The translations under genes were made by a program, and so were the position numbers. 47,226 nt of DNA, from contig CAYRBN010000001.1 of NCBI GenBank assembly GCA_964422625.1, forward strand, positions 1-47,226. Direction: 5' to 3'. Under the pieces are notes generated by a model. That model had not been told where the DNA came from and ran no database searches. It saw nothing but the letters and a program-made list of their open reading frames with translations. Below, one piece after another: positions 318 through 43,723 of the stretch. This DNA comes from an uncultured bacterium (GTDB lineage Bacteria > Hydrothermota > UBA3073). Position 1 is the first letter of the stretch, and every line of letters begins with the position of its first letter.

Positions 318-1334
318 TTACCTCCGTTTAGGTCTCAATCTATCTAAGGGTAATTCTTCGCCTGTCTTTAGATCCTTATACTTCCAAAAACGCCACCCAT
401 TAACAGGTAAACCATTCTGCACAGCCCTACCCGCTCCAGAAGGTGAGCGAAAAACTTGATTATTATATATTACTTTATTCGGCGAAAAATAAACAGCATA
501 GTATAATTTACCTTTATAGTGAGCAAATATCTCTATCCCTTCACTTTCATCAAAAATTTCTCTGGAAGGAATGGCTTTAATTAAATCCTCAGGTGAAATT
601 CTTAAAAGAGCAATTTCATCTTTTATAACCCCTATTCCATTTTCACACATTAATTCAACAAGTTCCTTCCCATTCATTAGCGAAATAGGAGCTTTGTATA
701 GGTCACTTGCTTCTTCTTGGGCAGGATTAGAAAAATCTGAAGTTGTAATTATTAGTCCTTGTTCGTGAGGGCCTAAACTTCCTCGTAATTGAGCAATAGT
801 CGAACTTTGGACATTATTACGCCACCGTTTTACCTGTATGCAGACTTTTGTTCTAATAACATCCCCAACAACGAGTTCACCCTTTACATCTATTCCTCCA
901 TCTCCTGTTCTTCCCACAATCTCAACATTTTCGAAACCTAAATTTCTTAACACTTCACCAGTTAATTCCTCGAATTTTGTTGGATCGATAGAGAGCAAAA
1001 TTTCTAAAAGCTGGCTTTTAACTTGGTTGTTTTTATTCCTAATATCCGCAAATATTCCCTTGGGCTCAAACTCAGTTAAAGAATAATACCCCTTACCGTA
1101 AGAAATAAATCTAGACTCTTCTCCTGTCCTTCGGGTTTTTCTTATTTCAGAATTTATTACAGATGATAGGTTGCCCGCTGTTATCAAATCATTAGAGTCT
1201 AATAATCCTTCTTCAAATGCTTTATTTGCAATTTCTCTGTAATCCATGGGTTTTTTATCACTAAATTCCTTTAGAATTTTATAGGCAATCTCAACATAAC
1301 TCAGAGCATTCAGTTTGTGGTGATTTTCATTCAT
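318..1334 (-). CDS. Mrr-family restriction endonuclease with N-terminal winged-helix (HARE-HTH/Mrr_N-like) and C-terminal RAMA/DUF4357-like domain
   Basis: Mrr_cat signature (FEELTGEVLRNLGF...GDGGIDVKG...IQVKRW...GLIITTSDFS). C-terminal motif SPSGAGRAVQNGLPVNGWRFWKY. Start moved to ATG 1334 (MNENHH), which overlaps the methylase stop by 8 nt (ATGAATGA) and follows GGGAGGA. Confidence 0.8.
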   Translation of the reverse strand: MNENHHKLNALSYVEIAYKILKEFSDKKPMDYREIANKAFEEGLLDSNDLITAGNLSSVINSEIRKTRRTGEESRFISYGKGYYSLTEFEPKGIFADIRNKNNQVKSQLLEILLSIDPTKFEELTGEVLRNLGFENVEIVGRTGDGGIDVKGELVVGDVIRTKVCIQVKRWRNNVQSSTIAQLRGSLGPHEQGLIITTSDFSNPAQEEASDLYKAPISLMNGKELVELMCENGIGVIKDEIALLRISPEDLIKAIPSREIFDESEGIEIFAHYKGKLYYAVYFSPNKVIYNNQVFRSPSGAGRAVQNGLPVNGWRFWKYKDLKTGEELPLDRLRPKRR

Positions 1335-2649
1335 TGAGTCCTCCCATCTCATGACCCAAATCATTTTTTTCAAGTTTACTAACAGAATCAAAAGTTTTTA
1401 TCCTATTACTCTCTTTTTTCTTATTCTTTATAAAAAGCAATATCGGATAAACCGAGATATTTTTGAAAATTTCAAGGTTTGAAATGTCCACTATTTCCTC
1501 AATACTGAAATTGTCCAGGATACATTTCCTTAACCATCTTGCTGATTTCAAAACTTGAACCTTATTTGGAATAATATATCCAAACATACCAGTTGCATTT
1601 AGTAAATCCAATGCCATTTTAATAAAACAAAAATATAGATCAAACGCTCCCTTTGCAACTTCAGGAAAGTTTTCTCTACATACTTTTTTCAACTCACCGG
1701 GCATCTTCTTTGCCTCTAAATACGGAGGATTTCCAATAACAAAATCAAATCCACCTTTGAATTCTCGCATCTTATTTTTTAGGCAGAATACGGTTTCATT
1801 ATCACTGGAGTCTCTTTTGTTCACCGAGTTAGTCAAAAATAAATTAAATCCTTTAGTCTTAAATGTCGGATTGGTTTTCTTGATCTCTTCTAATATGTCA
1901 AAAGTAGCCAATAGCAGATTTAATTCAGATAGTTTAAGTGAAAATGGATTTATATCTAACCCCCATATATTGTTCTGCAGTATCTCAAAAATGGAAGAAT
2001 AACTATATTTTTTTCTTTTTAGATTTTTAATTAAAATGTTAGCTGCTCGTAAAATAAATGCACCACTACCACAAGAGATGTCTATTATTTTTTTATTCTT
2101 TAAATCAGCACTTATGGTATATCCTACACGAGTCAAAATATAATCTATAATTTCATCTGGAGTATAAACTTGCCCAAGCAATATTCTTTCTTCTTTGCTA
2201 ATAAATTGCTCATAAAGTTTTCCTATCAAATCAGTATCTACATCTCTAAAATCGTATTTATTAAGTAAATCTAATAGTTGCAACTCAAGATGTCGTGGTG
2301 GGACATAATAGGTATATACCTCATCGTTAGCAAGATTGAAATACCTATCTTCAAAGTGTTCATAAAATTCATTCATAGACTCATATAAATCATTTTTTAA
2401 TGGAACAGATAGAAAATCATTATCGATGCAATACTTCATAAAAATTGCTTTACCAAAATAAAGAATAATTGCTTCCAACATAAATTTGTTCCTGTCAGTT
2501 ATTCCTGTGGTTTCCAAAAATATTTGGGTATTGGATGATTTTTGGGCGTTATCTATAAATGTTTTTAATAAGTCATGGAATTCTTTCAAAATTATATTGA
2601 AAACTTGCTTATCAGAAAAATTAATTTTGTGTTTAAATAAATACGCCAT
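1327..2649 (-). CDS. gamma-class N6-adenine DNA methyltransferase (Eco57I/TaqI-like catalytic core)
   Basis: Motif I DISCGSGAFIL lies upstream of motif IV VIGNPPY. Only about 130 aa follow NPPY, so no obvious TRD. Confidence 0.85.
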   Translation of the reverse strand: MAYLFKHKINFSDKQVFNIILKEFHDLLKTFIDNAQKSSNTQIFLETTGITDRNKFMLEAIILYFGKAIFMKYCIDNDFLSVPLKNDLYESMNEFYEHFEDRYFNLANDEVYTYYVPPRHLELQLLDLLNKYDFRDVDTDLIGKLYEQFISKEERILLGQVYTPDEIIDYILTRVGYTISADLKNKKIIDISCGSGAFILRAANILIKNLKRKKYSYSSIFEILQNNIWGLDINPFSLKLSELNLLLATFDILEEIKKTNPTFKTKGFNLFLTNSVNKRDSSDNETVFCLKNKMREFKGGFDFVIGNPPYLEAKKMPGELKKVCRENFPEVAKGAFDLYFCFIKMALDLLNATGMFGYIIPNKVQVLKSARWLRKCILDNFSIEEIVDISNLEIFKNISVYPILLFIKNKKKESNRIKTFDSVSKLEKNDLGHEMGGLNE

Positions 2650-38823: not shown

Positions 38824-40146
38824 TTACTCCCTTGCACAGTCTTCAAACTTTGTATATTCTCCCAAGAATGTGAGGTTTATACTACCGCCGGAAGGCCCGT
38901 TTCGCTGTTTGCCAATCATTATCTCTGCCACACTGGCATCTTCATCCTCTCCTGCTCTATCTTTTTCATGTCTGTGTATAAATATCACCACATCTGCATC
39001 CTGCTCTATTGCCCCTGATTCTCTTAGGTCTGAGAGTATTGGTCTTCTGGATTCTCTCTTTTCTACTGCCCTTGAGAGCTGGGAGACTGCTATGATAGGA
39101 AGTCCCAGTTCTTTGGCAAGCCCTTTTAGCGACCTTGAGATTGCAGATATCTCCTGCTGTCTGTTTTCTACAGATCTGGGTCCCTGGATAAGCTGTAAGT
39201 AATCTACAAGAATCAATTGTGCATTATATTGTGCTCGCAACCTTCTTGCCTTTGCTCTCAGTTCAAGGATTGGTAACCCAGCTGTATCATCTATAAATAT
39301 ATCTGCCTCGGAGAGTGTGCCAGCTGATGTTGTAAGTCTTCTCAACTCCTCTTCTGATATATAACCTGTCCTCACTTTTCGGATTGGAACCCTTGCTTCT
39401 GTGCAGAGCATCCTTTGAACAAGCTGTTCCTTTGACATCTCAAGGCTAAATATTCCAACAGGCATCCCATGTCTTGAGGCTGCATACTGTGCAATATTGA
39501 GGGCGAAAGATGTTTTACCCGTTGCCGGTCTACCTGCAACCACTATAAAATCAGAAGCCTGGAAACCAAAAGTGAGACGGTCAAGATCTTTCCAGCCCGA
39601 AGGAACACCTGTTATATATTTCTTATTCGTAGTCATCTTATCTATAACCTCAAATCTTTCCATAACAAGGGTCCTCAAAGGGATAAACCCGGTTTTTACC
39701 CTTGCCTCTTTTATACTAAATACAAGTTGTTCTGACTTATCTAATAGTTCATCTACATCCCCAGAGGCCTCGTATCCTGCCTCAAGGATCTTACCAGCTG
39801 TCTGTATCAGTTTTCTAAGCGTTGCCTTCTCCTGAACAATCTTGGCATAATATTCTATATGGGAAGGAGTTGTTGTAAGATCTACAATCTCGGCAAGATA
39901 AGCTGCACCCCCTACCTTGTCAAGATCCTTTCTCTTTTTTAAGATTTCACTCAGAGTAACAAGGTCAACCGGTAAATTCTTGTCATAGAGAGAGACAATT
40001 GCCCTAAATATCTTCTTATGTGAATCAAAATAGAAACAGGACTCATCAATTATCTCTATCGCCCTTCCTATGGCATCTCGTTGAAGCATGATAGCGCCAA
40101 GGACATTCTGTTCTGCCTCTATTGATTGTGGCTCCTTCCTTTCCAT
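38824..40146 (-). CDS. dnaB: replicative DNA helicase
   Basis: 440 aa. N-terminal PQSIEAEQNVLGAIM and Walker A GRPATGKTSFALN. RecA-like C-terminal domain. Confidence 0.95.
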   Translation of the reverse strand: MERKEPQSIEAEQNVLGAIMLQRDAIGRAIEIIDESCFYFDSHKKIFRAIVSLYDKNLPVDLVTLSEILKKRKDLDKVGGAAYLAEIVDLTTTPSHIEYYAKIVQEKATLRKLIQTAGKILEAGYEASGDVDELLDKSEQLVFSIKEARVKTGFIPLRTLVMERFEVIDKMTTNKKYITGVPSGWKDLDRLTFGFQASDFIVVAGRPATGKTSFALNIAQYAASRHGMPVGIFSLEMSKEQLVQRMLCTEARVPIRKVRTGYISEEELRRLTTSAGTLSEADIFIDDTAGLPILELRAKARRLRAQYNAQLILVDYLQLIQGPRSVENRQQEISAISRSLKGLAKELGLPIIAVSQLSRAVEKRESRRPILSDLRESGAIEQDADVVIFIHRHEKDRAGEDEDASVAEIMIGKQRNGPSGGSINLTFLGEYTKFEDCARE

Positions 40147-40259
40147 AATACACCTCTTGTTGTTATTGGACGCAGATGGACGCTGATTAACACTGATTTT
40201 TTAATTTCGTTTTTGTATAAATTCCCTATTTATGAAATCCTTGACTCACTTTGTAATTA

Positions 40260-40502
40260 TCAGCACCTTTGAAACCGCTGTATAGGTTTTTTTATTGCAA
40301 GACTGAAATTTCTTTTTAACTCCCAGCTCTTTTCAGGATTTTTAGTATCGGCAATTATTAAGAATACTCTATTATTATCCCCAAATCTCTGAGCTCCTTG
40401 TAATTCATAAAGATATTTCTCTACTTCAACAAACAGGACTTTTGAGTAAGCTATATTTACCCCAATATCCTTTTCTCTGCAAGTTTGCAATAATCTTTGC
40501 AA
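40260..40502 (-). CDS. hypothetical ORF (possibly a gene fragment)
   Basis: TTG start immediately after an in-frame TAA and no RBS. AT-rich like the neighbouring island. Confidence 0.25.
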   Translation of the reverse strand: MQRLLQTCREKDIGVNIAYSKVLFVEVEKYLYELQGAQRFGDNNRVFLIIADTKNPEKSWELKRNFSLAIKKPIQRFQRC

Positions 40503-40575
40503 TTATCTATAAGTATAAAACTTCTATTAAGTTTTTTAGAAAATGGGAACTTTTTACTAATATGGCAGCATCTCA

Positions 40576-40746
40576 TTAATCTATTGCTTTTAGTTTCTTA
40601 AAAACAGTCTGCAACTCTTTATCTGTAATTTCAACTCCTTCCCATTTCAAGTAATCTATGATTTGCTCCTTAATAGGTCTCATCCATCCAGCAGAAATTC
40701 TACTCTCTAAATCTACAATTAGGTCTTTTAATTCTTCTTTTAACAT
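40576..40746 (-). CDS. 56-aa ORF overlapping the methylase stop (TAATG); absent from the ORF track
   Basis: Hand translation: MLKEELKDLIVDLESRISAGWMRPIKEQIIDYLKWEGVEITDKELQTVFKKLKAID, stop at 40576-40578. ATG 40746 shares one base with the methylase TAA (40746-40748). Confidence 0.4.
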   Translation of the reverse strand: MLKEELKDLIVDLESRISAGWMRPIKEQIIDYLKWEGVEITDKELQTVFKKLKAID

Positions 40747-41513
40747 TATGAGCTGCTTCCTTTCAGAGACATAGTATTACCTATCCTATCTTCTGCGATT
40801 TTGCAATATTCTTTACAATTATCGATAAGAACGAAGTTACGTCCAAGTTTCTTTGCTACAACTCCTACAGTTCCACTTCCTGCAAACATATCTAAAACTA
40901 TATTATCTTGATAGGAATAAAACTTAATTAATCTATATACAAGTTCTTCCGGAAATGGCGCAGGATGTCCTATTTTTTTTCTACTTTCTGGTGTAAAAGT
41001 CCATATACTCCTTGTATATTTCATAAATTCTTCAGATGTCAAATCACATCTATCTTTATCACCCTCTAACCTAAATTTATCTTTAGAGAATATAATAATA
41101 TATTCGTGTCTTGGCACTATATGAGGGTTGCTACAAGATTTCCAACTTCCCCAGGCACAATGTTTCGCTGCGCTATTCTTATTCCAAATTATTGTTCCTC
41201 TATATAACATTTCCAACTCTATACACTGTCGAGTAAAAGCACTATATGGTGGGTATGTTATATCTTGTCTTTTATTTTCTCCATAATTTATACACAATCT
41301 TCCACCATTTACTAAAATTCTCTTTGTTGCTTTCCATATTTGATACATCCACTCAAAATATTCATTATAGTCCTTTCTATCTTTATAATTTATGTAAGGT
41401 TTATCTAAATTGTATGGTGGTGAAGTAATAACTAAATGGATAAAATTATCAGGTACCTTCCTTAAAATTTCTAATGCATCTCCACAGATTACTTTATTCA
41501 TTTCTACCATCAT
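40746..41513 (-). CDS. beta-class DNA methyltransferase (N4-cytosine or N6-adenine; SPPY type)
   Basis: Motif IV LVITSPPYNL is N-terminal and motif I DMFAGSGTVG is C-terminal. RBS is GAGGTAG. Confidence 0.85.
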   Translation of the reverse strand: MMVEMNKVICGDALEILRKVPDNFIHLVITSPPYNLDKPYINYKDRKDYNEYFEWMYQIWKATKRILVNGGRLCINYGENKRQDITYPPYSAFTRQCIELEMLYRGTIIWNKNSAAKHCAWGSWKSCSNPHIVPRHEYIIIFSKDKFRLEGDKDRCDLTSEEFMKYTRSIWTFTPESRKKIGHPAPFPEELVYRLIKFYSYQDNIVLDMFAGSGTVGVVAKKLGRNFVLIDNCKEYCKIAEDRIGNTMSLKGSSS

Positions 41514-41523
41514 AGTGGCTACC

Positions 41524-42597
41524 TCAATAATTTGTTATCTCAAATTTTATTGTATTATTATCAATTGTGTATGTTACAAATATTGGCTTTCTTAAACTTA
41601 ATGAATAATTCTTTGCTCTTTCTATTGCTGAAGGATGTATCTCTTTTCCAATAAAAATGGGTTGTATCACATCTAAATTATTATTTGTTAAATTTTTCGA
41701 TGCCCATTTTACATATTCTTCTAATTGTATCACATCCGCTTGGGAAGGTATATTTTTTATTGAGTCTTTTTTGAGTTCTATTATTGATATTTTATATCTA
41801 ATATTTTTGTTATTCACTTTCCTGGTGTGATACACAAGAACATCTATGTTCCCACCTGCAACAGTAACAGGCACATAATTAGCAAACCATTCTATATCAT
41901 CTAAAGGCCCTAAAAATTTTTCTGTTCCCACTGACTCATCATCAATATGTTGAATCAACCATCCCTCTAAAATTTTTTCGTATTTTACACAGCTATTCTC
42001 ATCAGGCTCAAGGTCAAATTTTATAGGTTCTTTTCTAATAGGAAGATAAGGTTGGAAACTTTTGAGTTCTTGCATACCATCATTTGCTTTTAGCAAAAGT
42101 TCTATCAATTCATTCTCTTCCTCTGGAGATAAATGAGTAATACTTTTTCCTCTTTGCAATGTTTTTCTATAAAAGAGCGATCTTAATTTTATTGAGGCGA
42201 GAAGTTCGCCAAATGCTTTCATCTCTGATATGGGATTTTTCAAATACATATACGGCCTGATCTGTATCCTTGTAGGATATATTAACTGTCCTTCCACATA
42301 GTGAGGATTTTCTTTGCTTCCACAGATAAACTCATCAGAAAACGCATCAATTCCATTGAATTCTTCTTCATCAATAAACGGTTCACTTATTGCTTTATAA
42401 ATACCGTGAAATCCTACAGTTTGTTCATAGAAAAATATCTTATCATCTCTTCTGACACAACACATATCAGAACAAAGATCTGCTTTTGTTTTCTCTGACA
42501 ATTTCTTAGTTACATCTTCACCAATAATAGCTGCAATTCCCCTATCTCTTACAATAGGAAAAGTTTCTGGGGTAACAATAAAAACGTGCGCTGCCAT
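41524..42597 (-). CDS. candidate restriction nuclease: N-terminal PUA/EVE-like fold plus C-terminal NucS/PD-(D/E)xK-like nuclease
   Basis: The C-terminus has E(KILEGW)...GNIDVLVY...ISIIELKKD...QLEEY, a D..ExK arrangement. The N-terminus HVFIVTPETFP...DDKIFFYE..GFHGIYKAIS resembles a PUA-like barrel. Assignment is by motif only. Confidence 0.5.
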   Translation of the reverse strand: MAAHVFIVTPETFPIVRDRGIAAIIGEDVTKKLSEKTKADLCSDMCCVRRDDKIFFYEQTVGFHGIYKAISEPFIDEEEFNGIDAFSDEFICGSKENPHYVEGQLIYPTRIQIRPYMYLKNPISEMKAFGELLASIKLRSLFYRKTLQRGKSITHLSPEEENELIELLLKANDGMQELKSFQPYLPIRKEPIKFDLEPDENSCVKYEKILEGWLIQHIDDESVGTEKFLGPLDDIEWFANYVPVTVAGGNIDVLVYHTRKVNNKNIRYKISIIELKKDSIKNIPSQADVIQLEEYVKWASKNLTNNNLDVIQPIFIGKEIHPSAIERAKNYSLSLRKPIFVTYTIDNNTIKFEITNY

Positions 42598-42611
42598 TCT
42601 GTCCCTCCTTT

Positions 42612-42845
42612 TTAATAATTTTCCTCAATTATTTTTCTGACAGCATTGTCATTATAGAAATCTACATAATCAAAACAACCTATCAGCTTACTAGAAGAAG
42701 AATAAATTTCTATCCCAGGTATATCTCCTCTTATAACTTCAAAACTTTGTCCTGTTTCTAAATCAATACTTAATTCTCTTGTATCGATATCAAGATAATT
42801 TCTCACCCTAAATTTTTCTCCTTCATACAGAATAAATTTCTCCAT
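42612..42845 (-). CDS. 77-aa protein of unknown function, first gene of the island
   Basis: Strong RBS AAAGGGGGA 4 nt before ATG 42845. No recognisable motif. Confidence 0.45.
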   Translation of the reverse strand: MEKFILYEGEKFRVRNYLDIDTRELSIDLETGQSFEVIRGDIPGIEIYSSSSKLIGCFDYVDFYNDNAVRKIIEENY

Positions 42846-42958
42846 AAATTCCCCCTTTTATTTTTTGACACTACAATTTTATTGTTATTCTAAGCATTGC
42901 TTGATGAGAGACAGGATAGAGATACAATCCTAATTGTTCTCTAACTGTCCTTATCACC

Positions 42959-43723
42959 TCACCGGGTTTTTCTGTCTCTCTCTTTTTTGGTGTCTGTCTT
43001 GTTGCCATCTTGATTACCTCCTTTCAATATAACCTCATCATACAATCTTCTTGCAAACCTGAGGTCATCCCATGCACCATGCTTCCAGCTCTCATGATAG
43101 AGAAGAGCAGCGGGATGATATGTGGGAATTACCTTTATATTATTGTAATACAAAATATTTCCCCTTATAGAAGATAGAGAGCCGTCATAACCAAGCAAAA
43201 GATTGATGGCATGCCTGCCAAGTGCAAGTATAAGCTCAGGATTTATAATCTCTATCTGTCTTTTGAGATGCATCTTGCAAGACTCTACCTCATCTGGTTC
43301 TGGGTCTCTGTTACCAGGAGGTCTACACTTGAGAACATTGGCTATATACACATCATCCCTCGTTAATTCTATTGCCTCTAACATCTTTGTAAGCAGCTTT
43401 CCAGCCCTACCAACAAATGGCTCACCCTTTATATCCTCTTCCTCTCCCGGCGCCTCTCCAATAAGCATCATAATTGCATGTTCATCACCTTTTCCAAATA
43501 CCGTATTTTTTCTTGTCTTGTGGAGTTGGCATCGTTTACATTCCTTGCAAAGCGCTTCTAATTCCCTTAGGGAACTCACCACTTTATATGGCTTTTTTTC
43601 TTGCGTAGCTGAAGCTACGCTACTACTTGGTAAAGAAACCCTGTCAAAGAACAGAAACTCCTCTCCAAGCATCTCTATCTCTTTTAGATAGTTCAAAACA
43701 AGTGTTCTCAGGCTATCTCGCAT
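42959..43723 (-). CDS. udg: family-4 uracil-DNA glycosylase (Fe-S type) with N- and C-terminal extensions
   Basis: CKRCQL...GEAPGEEEDIKGEPFVGRAGKLL and HPAALL motifs. Confidence 0.85.
   Translation of the reverse strand: MRDSLRTLVLNYLKEIEMLGEEFLFFDRVSLPSSSVASATQEKKPYKVVSSLRELEALCKECKRCQLHKTRKNTVFGKGDEHAIMMLIGEAPGEEEDIKGEPFVGRAGKLLTKMLEAIELTRDDVYIANVLKCRPPGNRDPEPDEVESCKMHLKRQIEIINPELILALGRHAINLLLGYDGSLSSIRGNILYYNNIKVIPTYHPAALLYHESWKHGAWDDLRFARRLYDEVILKGGNQDGNKTDTKKERDRKTR

Follow-up and report, generated by a model that had tools for sequence, protein, structure and literature searches.

A candidate mobile restriction-modification cassette with an EVE/NucS-type nuclease at the udg–dnaB locus of a WOR-3 bacterium

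Genes of the udg–dnaB island

The DNA analysed (the window: 47,226 nucleotides (nt), contig CAYRBN010000001.1, assembly GCA_964422625.1, uncultured bacterium, Hydrothermota; UBA3073) carries an AT-rich island between the genes udg and dnaB, and on the minus strand of this island a small open reading frame (ORF), orf77, is followed by the genes for a two-domain nuclease and for an SPPY methylase. These three genes, read here as a candidate restriction-modification cassette, are the subject of the present text. A first-pass annotation, made from the letters alone, had listed five ORFs in the island; all five lie on the minus strand, their coordinates, lengths and junctions are exactly those given there, and the strings GNIDVLVY, ISIIELKKD, QLEEY and ITSPPY were present. 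Two remnants were absent from that list, orf39 and an ORF of 45 amino acids (aa), and have been added (Table 1). The stop of the nuclease gene and the start of the methylase gene are 10 nt apart; the stop of the methylase gene overlaps the start of orf56 (TAATG); Shine-Dalgarno sites were located 5 nt 5' of orf77 (GGGGG) and before the nuclease gene (GGAGGG).

The G+C content of the island (40147–42958, from the dnaB start at 40146 to the udg stop at 42959) was 31.3% against 41.2% in the rest of the window, the lowest value among 389 windows of equal size; G+C at third codon positions was 0.17–0.27 inside the island and 0.36–0.37 in dnaB and udg. The contrast noted at first pass is real, although the hand-counted values (23% against 45%) overstated it. 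No intrinsic terminators were found within the island, and promoter-like matches carry no information in DNA so rich in AT. The island looks horizontally acquired.

Searches with the single nuclease sequence gave no match in NCBIfam, PADLOC or PDB and, in Pfam, EVE only (PF01878; 12.6 bits, E 0.14, under the gathering cutoff of 23); because direct annotation was nearly empty, the domains had to be assigned by means of a family profile together with a modelled structure. The 90% database contained 46 clusters of homologues; the 50% library yielded 736 at E ≤ 1e-3, with 97 at E ≤ 1e-30, nearly all 330–420 aa long and of the same two-domain span, and one homologue bears the NCBI name 'EVE domain-containing protein'. 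The family profile matched PH1033 (1wmm) and MJECL36 (2p5d) over residues 4–119 (E about 1e-6; 1.4e-6 against PDB entries). The AlphaFold model, built from 32 sequences (predicted local distance difference test (pLDDT) 94.1, predicted template-modelling score 0.91), was submitted to Foldseek; relatives of the N-terminal half were PH1033 (1wmm, 6e-7, template-modelling score 0.73 on the target), 2p5d, 2gbs, the EVE-HNH enzyme VcaM4I (6yex, 8e-5) and THYN1 (5j3e), which binds 5-methylcytosine (5mC); relatives of the C-terminal half were EndoMS (5gke) and NucS (2vld), both with probability 1.0, and the Can2/Card1 nuclease domains. Over the C-terminus the match of the family profile to NucS 2vld was weak (E 0.05), and the Pfam family NucS_C gave no match to the window nuclease at E ≤ 1. 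Profile and model agree on both halves and confirm the predicted EVE/PUA-like barrel at the N-terminus and the predicted NucS-type PD-(D/E)xK domain at the C-terminus.

Among 125 full-length representatives of the family the putative catalytic residues were retained as follows: D252 125/125, E274 125/125, E207 123/125, K276 110/125; all four are intact in the window nuclease. In the EVE domain H4, T12, D44, D52, Y57, G65, R110 and E125 are conserved between loci, and of the N-terminal region as a whole D44, D52, G65, R110 and K145 are nearly invariant in the same set of representatives; the conserved EVE residues are a candidate base pocket. No characterised restriction endonuclease was matched in PADLOC, Pfam, NCBIfam or the PDB sequences, REBASE lying outside the scope of this comparison. 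In two syntenic loci of Dehalococcoidales (L037, L038) K276 is replaced by R or N and the other conserved residues are kept; these nucleases may be inactivated or repurposed.

The methylase was matched by PF01555 (5e-49) and by PADLOC MTase_II (2e-74). Motif IV (ITSPPY, residue 31) stands before motif I (FAGSGT, residue 210), which is the beta-class order, and by profile and motifs the protein is a complete beta-class SPPY amino-methyltransferase. Its product is probably N4-methylcytosine, on account of the SPPY motif (established knowledge) and of the closest solved relatives, TTHA0409 (2zie, 5e-30) and the N4-cytosine methyltransferases 8s9m/8s9n (5e-23); the adenine enzymes MboIIA, RsrI and CcrM score far behind these.

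Table 1. Features of the window and of the related loci (L numbers) named in the text.
Feature	Sequence	Position	Strand	Remarks
orf77	window	42612–42845	minus	77 aa, acidic, isoelectric point 4.4; conserved small partner of the nuclease
EVE/NucS-type nuclease	window	41524–42597	minus	357 aa
EVE (PUA-like) domain of nuclease, predicted	window	42208–42597	minus	residues ~1–130
NucS/EndoMS-type PD-(D/E)xK domain of nuclease, predicted	window	41524–42000	minus	residues ~200–357
SPPY beta-class methylase	window	40746–41513	minus	255 aa; motif IV ITSPPY, motif I FAGSGT
orf56	window	40576–40746	minus	56 aa; lineage-specific passenger overlapping methylase stop
orf39	window	40457–40576	minus	39 aa; remnant of methylase 3' end
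orf80	window	40249–40502	minus	pseudogene remnant; ORF itself 40260–40502, 80 aa
45-aa ORF	window	42871–43008	minus	overlaps udg 3' end; 5' stump of second methylase
Direct repeat	window	40466–40537 and 40782–40853		72 nt
First AT-rich island	window	318–2649	minus	G+C 0.28–0.35
Eco57I/N6_Mtase-type methylase	window	1327–2649	minus	440 aa
HARE-HTH, Mrr_cat, RAMA nuclease	window	318–1391	minus	357 aa
Nucleases with K276 replaced	L037; L038	7974–9038; 490–1548		
Second ~70-aa ORF	L005; L011; L017; L019	7846–8061; 5751–5966; 9029–9241; 2741–2935		overlaps nuclease stop
225–284-aa proteins	L009; L029; L035	9038–9715; 1742–2596; 9305–10114		directly 3' of nuclease
NTP_transf_2 and DUF4145 genes	L013	3886–5292		beside dnaB
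Surroundings of P0046	L061	1–4871		
orf77-family member and NmeDI_C-domain protein	L075/L076	3501–4497		

Linkage of nuclease, methylase and orf77

Related loci were gathered by a pattern scan of 185,579 species genomes (41 genome loci), to which 18 metagenome loci and further contigs were added; two nuclease subfamilies stand out among them, the close one, to which the window belongs (45–65% nuclease identity), and a distant one (~33% identity, 39 genome loci). In the close subfamily an orthologous SPPY methylase (58–76% identical) adjoins the nuclease in 19/19 loci with readable downstream sequence, a count that includes the window and corresponds to ~14 non-redundant loci. The methylase gene lies mostly in tandem with the nuclease gene and is convergent in L042, L043, L051, L058 and L059; in L062–L065 the pair alone forms a two-gene insert between housekeeping genes. 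The identity matrices of the two proteins correlate (Mantel r 0.77, p ~2e-4), the methylase being the more conserved (mean identity 68% against 57% for the nuclease). In L055 the nuclease gene is frameshifted and the adjoining methylase gene intact; the nuclease is the first to go in the usual decay of restriction-modification systems. Because of the strict linkage, the occurrence of both orientations, the co-divergence and the frameshifted-nuclease locus, the close-subfamily pair has the genetic hallmarks of a mobile restriction-modification unit. Searches of IMG/VR and of 50,697 phage records gave no match to the nuclease family; its origin from a phage or plasmid was considered and rejected, the sole plasmid match being a solitary gene on a plasmid of Halobaculum.

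A single-sequence search with orf77 recovered 2 proteins only; a profile search recovered at least 219 clusters of 63–145 aa (almost all 70–90), none with a Pfam domain, and the few that carry a source name are hypothetical proteins. orf77 aligns with ORFs of ~75 aa located directly upstream of the nuclease gene elsewhere (GEKF...FDID...GD...IY), which often overlap that gene by 4 nt, and the hidden Markov model of the family detected a member in 20/60 nuclease loci, of both subfamilies and including methylase-free loci. orf77 itself gave no match in Pfam, NCBIfam or PADLOC. Its AlphaFold 2 model, built with homologous database proteins, is a four-strand beta-sheet with a C-terminal helix (pLDDT 89.9), and Foldseek found no structural relatives of it in PDB or BFVD (best E 0.04–0.2). 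Two candidate identities were discarded: that of a controller (C-protein), there being no helix-turn-helix (HTH) family match and the model being beta-rich, and that of a known anti-restriction protein or DNA mimic, there being no structural match in PDB or BFVD. orf77 is a genuine accessory of the nuclease rather than an HTH controller, and by the alignments it is the sole conserved small-ORF partner in the cassette. A family member also stands upstream of a 243-aa NmeDI_C-domain protein (L075/L076), EVE-nuclease being absent there; because this member precedes an NmeDI_C-type nuclease, the orf77 family is not exclusive to one nuclease family.

From the domain folds, the intact catalytic set, the motifs of the methylase and the strict, co-diverging linkage of the two proteins in distant hosts, the three-gene operon of orf77, EVE/NucS-type nuclease and SPPY methylase is read as a mobile type II-like restriction-modification cassette at a udg–dnaB hotspot of a candidate division WOR-3 bacterium; a probability of roughly 0.55 is assigned to this reading, the function being drawn wholly from genomic inference. 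The methylase would place its mark on an exocyclic amine of the host DNA, with cytosine N4 as the likeliest position, and the nuclease would cut DNA without that mark. The EVE domain would flip the target base into the conserved pocket, and the unmethylated base alone would fit there and release the nuclease domain. Such a 'negative reader' is modelled by analogy on autoinhibition by the EVE domain and linker in VcaM4I, where the EVE pocket forms a hydrogen bond to the N4 amine of the flipped-out cytosine and the EVE domain together with the linker blocks the catalytic domain (PMC7897488); since the VcaM4I pocket makes this hydrogen bond, an N-methyl group at this amine would be expected to clash in the pocket. 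The product of orf77 would bind or tune the nuclease and so delay or damp its activity, playing a part like that of a C-protein by a non-HTH route. A broader proposal is put forward as rather speculative: EVE as a negative reader would place methylation sensing in a separable module and not in the DNA contacts of the catalytic domain, the scaffold could switch in the course of evolution between methylation-blocked, methylase-linked forms and forms that are modification-dependent or methylase-independent, and the orf77 family would be a new class of non-HTH regulators common to unrelated restriction nucleases.

The layout of the small gene also suits a different arrangement, in which orf77 and the nuclease would constitute a toxin-antitoxin or abortive-infection-like pair, with orf77 keeping the nuclease inhibited until the cell is infected or the cassette lost and the methylase acting as a second layer or a mere neighbour. 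The position of orf77-family genes directly 5' of the nuclease, with the frequent 4-nt overlap, is typical of antitoxin and toxin genes; the family occurs in the methylase-free loci L002, L003, L012, L020, L022 and L031 and before the unrelated NmeDI_C-type nuclease; and orf77 is acidic. The nuclease is, however, tolerated without the small gene in the remaining loci of the 60, bare nuclease-methylase cassettes occur, and orf77 is structurally unlike any known antitoxin or DNA mimic in PDB and BFVD, so that this arrangement is considered improbable.

The type II-like reading keeps most of what the first-pass annotation had proposed: the PUA/EVE-type barrel, the NucS-like half, the beta-class methylase, the lack of a C-protein HTH among the small ORFs (by family searches and by the model and structure search for orf77), the lack of a matching type II endonuclease model and the apparent horizontal acquisition all stand. 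Its module of five genes is reduced to three, orf77 being the one conserved partner among the small ORFs, orf56 a local passenger and the 80-aa ORF debris. The description 'not the textbook type II arrangement' applies to the architecture of the nuclease alone and not to the logic of the system, because the pair behaves genetically as an ordinary mobile restriction-modification unit.

Methylase-free relatives and known systems

It is possible, if less probable, that the nuclease is a modification-dependent enzyme (type IV or IIM-like), the EVE domain of which would read a foreign base (5mC, 5-hydroxymethylcytosine or a hypermodified base) and license cleavage, the mark of the methylase being ignored; the methylase would then travel along for another reason, such as shielding unmodified sites from residual activity. 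Several observations favour this possibility and weigh against the type II-like reading. The architecture fits the class of EVE-PD-(D/E)xK fusions that has been listed as putative modification-dependent (type IV) enzymes (Bell, Wolf and Koonin 2020, PMC7641849), and the nearest solved two-domain analogues are VcaM4I and MspJI, the latter once misread as an ordinary endonuclease owing to an adjacent, inactive methylase (PMC3874153). In the distant subfamily the methylase, where present, lies upstream and is of another class (motif I followed by MHPPY; PADLOC MTase_II PDLC03351 at 6e-110); it is complete in only ~5 loci and missing from ~20, where housekeeping genes flank the nuclease gene; in about a dozen others it breaks off before MHPPY. 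The distant nucleases nevertheless keep all catalytic and EVE residues (L037 and L038, with K276 lost, excepted), the EVE residues being identical in methylase-linked and methylase-free members. In L013, the nuclease persists and both adjoining methylases are destroyed; the remote member P0046 (L061) is surrounded by type IV genes (ScoMcrA-like, HSDR_N and DUF3427-helicase) and has no methylase; and the copy on the Halobaculum plasmid is solitary.

Against modification dependence stands the close subfamily itself, where the linkage to an intact and co-diverging methylase is unbroken, whichever the orientation and also where the pair stands alone as a two-gene cassette. Linkage so tight is unexpected for type IV enzymes, given that <6% of PUA-nuclease fusions are reported to lie near a DNA methylase (PMC6765204). 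The class of the partner methylase, moreover, shifts with the nuclease subfamily: SPPY beta-class, MHPPY class or Dam-like D12. Among remote members sampled from the 50% library, one has a Dam-like D12 methylase gene 8 nt upstream of the nuclease gene and another an N6_N4 methylase gene that overlaps it. The operons of P0088 (L071/L072) and P0100 (L073/L074) combine an IceA/NlaIII-like endonuclease, the EVE-nuclease and D12 and N6_N4 methylases, that is, two nucleases with two methylases, translationally coupled; an HTH_3 controller is present in the related P0100 operon.

The mobile type II-like cassette was set beside known systems. With VcaM4I and the EVE-PD-(D/E)xK fusions the nuclease shares the N-terminal EVE sensor, the helical linker, the C-terminal nuclease domain and a conserved candidate base pocket; it differs from VcaM4I in that the nuclease domain is of the NucS PD-(D/E)xK type and not HNH, and from the putative type IV fusions, which are defined as methylase-independent, in that an intact methylase accompanies the window subfamily throughout. 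The adjacency of a methylase and a PD-(D/E)xK nuclease, in tandem or convergent, is that of type II systems with a beta-class N4-cytosine methylase (PvuII; TTHA0409-like methylases), and as in classical type II systems the pair moves between phyla as a unit, the nuclease decays first and the island is low in G+C. Departures from the classical type are the reader-type domain, the lack of a match to any known type II endonuclease model (PADLOC, Pfam, NCBIfam, PDB), the unusual conservation of the family, the existence of methylase-free members, and the small beta-rich protein that precedes the nuclease in place of an HTH C-protein. MspJI (type IIM, SRA-like reader) likewise joins a PUA-superfamily reader to a PD-(D/E)xK domain and has an adjoining methylase gene; its reader, however, is SRA and not EVE, its neighbour is thought inactive whereas the methylase described here is intact and co-evolving, and the whole-chain Foldseek match of the nuclease to MspJI was weak (probability ~0.6). 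EcoRII and BfiI (type IIE/IIS) also combine a beta-barrel DNA-binding domain with a catalytic domain in a methylase-protected system, and the extra domain of EcoRII has an autoinhibitory effect on the nuclease; their barrels are nevertheless B3-like and read sequence, not a flipped base, and neither matched the window nuclease in sequence or fold.

The likeness to NucS/EndoMS extends to an N-terminal beta-barrel with a C-terminal RecB-like PD-(D/E)xK domain of the same fold (5gke, 2vld); the N-terminal domain is, by contrast, EVE, the sequence match is weak, and the gene is patchy and mobile rather than one of core repair. With this mismatch-repair enzyme as the nearest relative of the nuclease domain, a role in repair or strand discrimination of the Vsr/MutH kind may be envisaged, the EVE domain reading a methylated or damaged base and the nuclease nicking nearby, outside defence. 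Vsr and MutH, both repair nucleases of the PD-(D/E)xK type, have functional ties with methylases; several Dehalococcoidales loci are syntenic (phosphoglycerate mutase, nuclease, aspartokinase); and the conservation is high for a family of restriction enzymes. A repair role is held to be quite improbable in view of the very patchy distribution (the 41 loci of the pattern scan), the low-G+C island with DNA more alike between lineages than its flanks, and the co-occurrence with restriction genes, C-proteins and type IV genes; deamination of N4-methylcytosine gives uracil, which is already handled by UDG enzymes, and udg is adjacent.

The architecture of EVE plus PD-(D/E)xK has thus already been catalogued, and beta-class SPPY methylases are ordinary. 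What appears new, from the comparison of loci, is a clade, within a reader-nuclease family, whose members are obligately linked to a methylase and which behaves like a type II cassette; new also are the variation of the methylase class with the nuclease subfamily, solitary members existing alongside, and the unannotated family of small partners. PUA-superfamily readers (SRA, EVE, YTH) on nucleases are now taken as a signature of modification dependence, and the lack of a nearby methylase is counted in support of it; the rule is broken by a clade in which pairing with an active-looking methylase is obligate, and this implies either a risk of mis-annotation or a reader that senses the absence of a mark. 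With methylase-linked, decayed-methylase and solitary members on one scaffold, a continuum from blocked to dependent restriction becomes directly testable, and the orf77 family, which accompanies no fewer than two nuclease types unrelated to each other, may represent a novel sort of regulator or inhibitor of restriction.

Some further features of the distant and remote loci were recorded. The MHPPY-class methylase is cut between motifs I and IV, with the nuclease intact, in L004, L010, L017, L021, L029, L035, L045 and L057; the truncation points are several, occur in different phyla and leave the conserved N-terminal domain of ~110 aa (LLNIDPNGDT...) in place, and the shortened forms may be pseudogenes or may serve a new function. 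That the missing catalytic half might be encoded downstream, for instance by a 195-aa protein described below, was considered and rejected, there being neither an HPPY motif nor intergenic room. In Dehalococcoidia a second ORF of ~70 aa (DLDWG..GHIPN.GDRF.HP) overlaps the nuclease stop and was joined by BLAST clustering with the 225–284-aa proteins of L009, L029 and L035; the protein of L029 matched Pfam NucS_C (4.5e-4), and those of L029 and L035 matched the C-terminal domain of the nuclease. This family looks like another recurrent partner of the nuclease. In L061 the genes before P0046 are of ScoMcrA-SBD/HNH, HSDR_N and HIT-helicase-DUF3427 type and those after it are MazE, CcdAB and Uma2 genes, an island of type IV/toxin-antitoxin type.

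The udg–dnaB hotspot and its remnants

Two loci, L013 (WOR-3 UBA3073) and L018 (Stahlbacteria), represent the same udg–island–dnaB locus as the window. The order in the window is methylase-2 stump, orf77, nuclease-1, methylase-1, orf56, orf39, orf80; in L018 intact methylase-2, a small protein, nuclease-2, the last 64 nt of methylase-1, orf56, orf39; in L013 a 60-aa methylase-2 stump, nuclease-2, orf77, the C-terminal third of methylase-1, orf56, orf39 and an intact gene for the 195-aa protein. Cassette 1 is thus intact only in the window among the three. The identity of the DNA is 72–76% in the flanks; it reaches 92.5% between 41029–40484 of the window and L013 and 89.7% between 40810–40484 and L018. 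On the strength of the three versions of the locus and of this contrast between island and flanks, the udg–dnaB site is regarded as a recombination hotspot at which cassettes are exchanged and eroded.

The minor ORFs fall into place accordingly as local cargo or debris. orf56, found only in L013 and L018 (86% amino-acid identity) and giving no significant family match, is a passenger local to the hotspot in WOR-3/Stahlbacteria and stands outside the general module. It lies within the stretch of high identity to these two loci and is bracketed by the 72-nt direct repeat (74% identity between the copies). The translation of orf39 (...FILIDNCKDYCKLAEKR) resembles the C-terminus of the methylase, and by this resemblance and the repeat orf39 is a diverged duplicate of the last ~37 methylase codons. 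orf80 was aligned by tblastn with the 195-aa protein of L013: residues 117–166 of the latter correspond to 40415–40266 (58%, E 5e-15), residues 181–195 match in another frame, and the N-terminal catalytic part is missing from orf80. The 195-aa parent is intact in L004, L010 and L013 and carries GIDIFFNGQPFDLKVTY, a PD..DxK-like motif; it gave no match in Pfam, PADLOC or PDB, and it is on this motif that its tentative assignment as a nuclease is based. The 45-aa ORF matched, over 43008–42913, the 60-aa stump of L013 (59% over 32 aa, E 5e-11) and also residues 1–39 of the intact 319-aa MHPPY methylase of L018 (E 0.005); a second-methylase gene or its stump occupies the same place beside udg in the window, L013 and L018, and on these matches the 45-aa ORF is the 5' stump of an MHPPY-class methylase. 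orf39, the 45-aa ORF and orf80 are the wreckage of earlier cassettes.

Gene fragments littering the island in this way, together with the loss of cassette 1 from the sister loci L013 and L018, would also be expected if the cassette of the window were a decaying relic with no present activity. The three core genes are nevertheless full length and preceded by strong ribosome-binding sites, and the family-invariant residues and both methylase motifs are intact; a relic is accordingly judged very improbable.

Beside dnaB in L013 a minimal NTP_transf_2 nucleotidyltransferase (113 aa) and a DUF4145 protein (177 aa) are encoded, which are further cargo at the hotspot, defence- or toxin-antitoxin-like. 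At the other end of the window the first AT-rich island contains a second pair of restriction type within 47 kb, in which a nuclease with HARE-HTH, Mrr_cat and RAMA domains adjoins a methylase of the Eco57I/N6_Mtase type.

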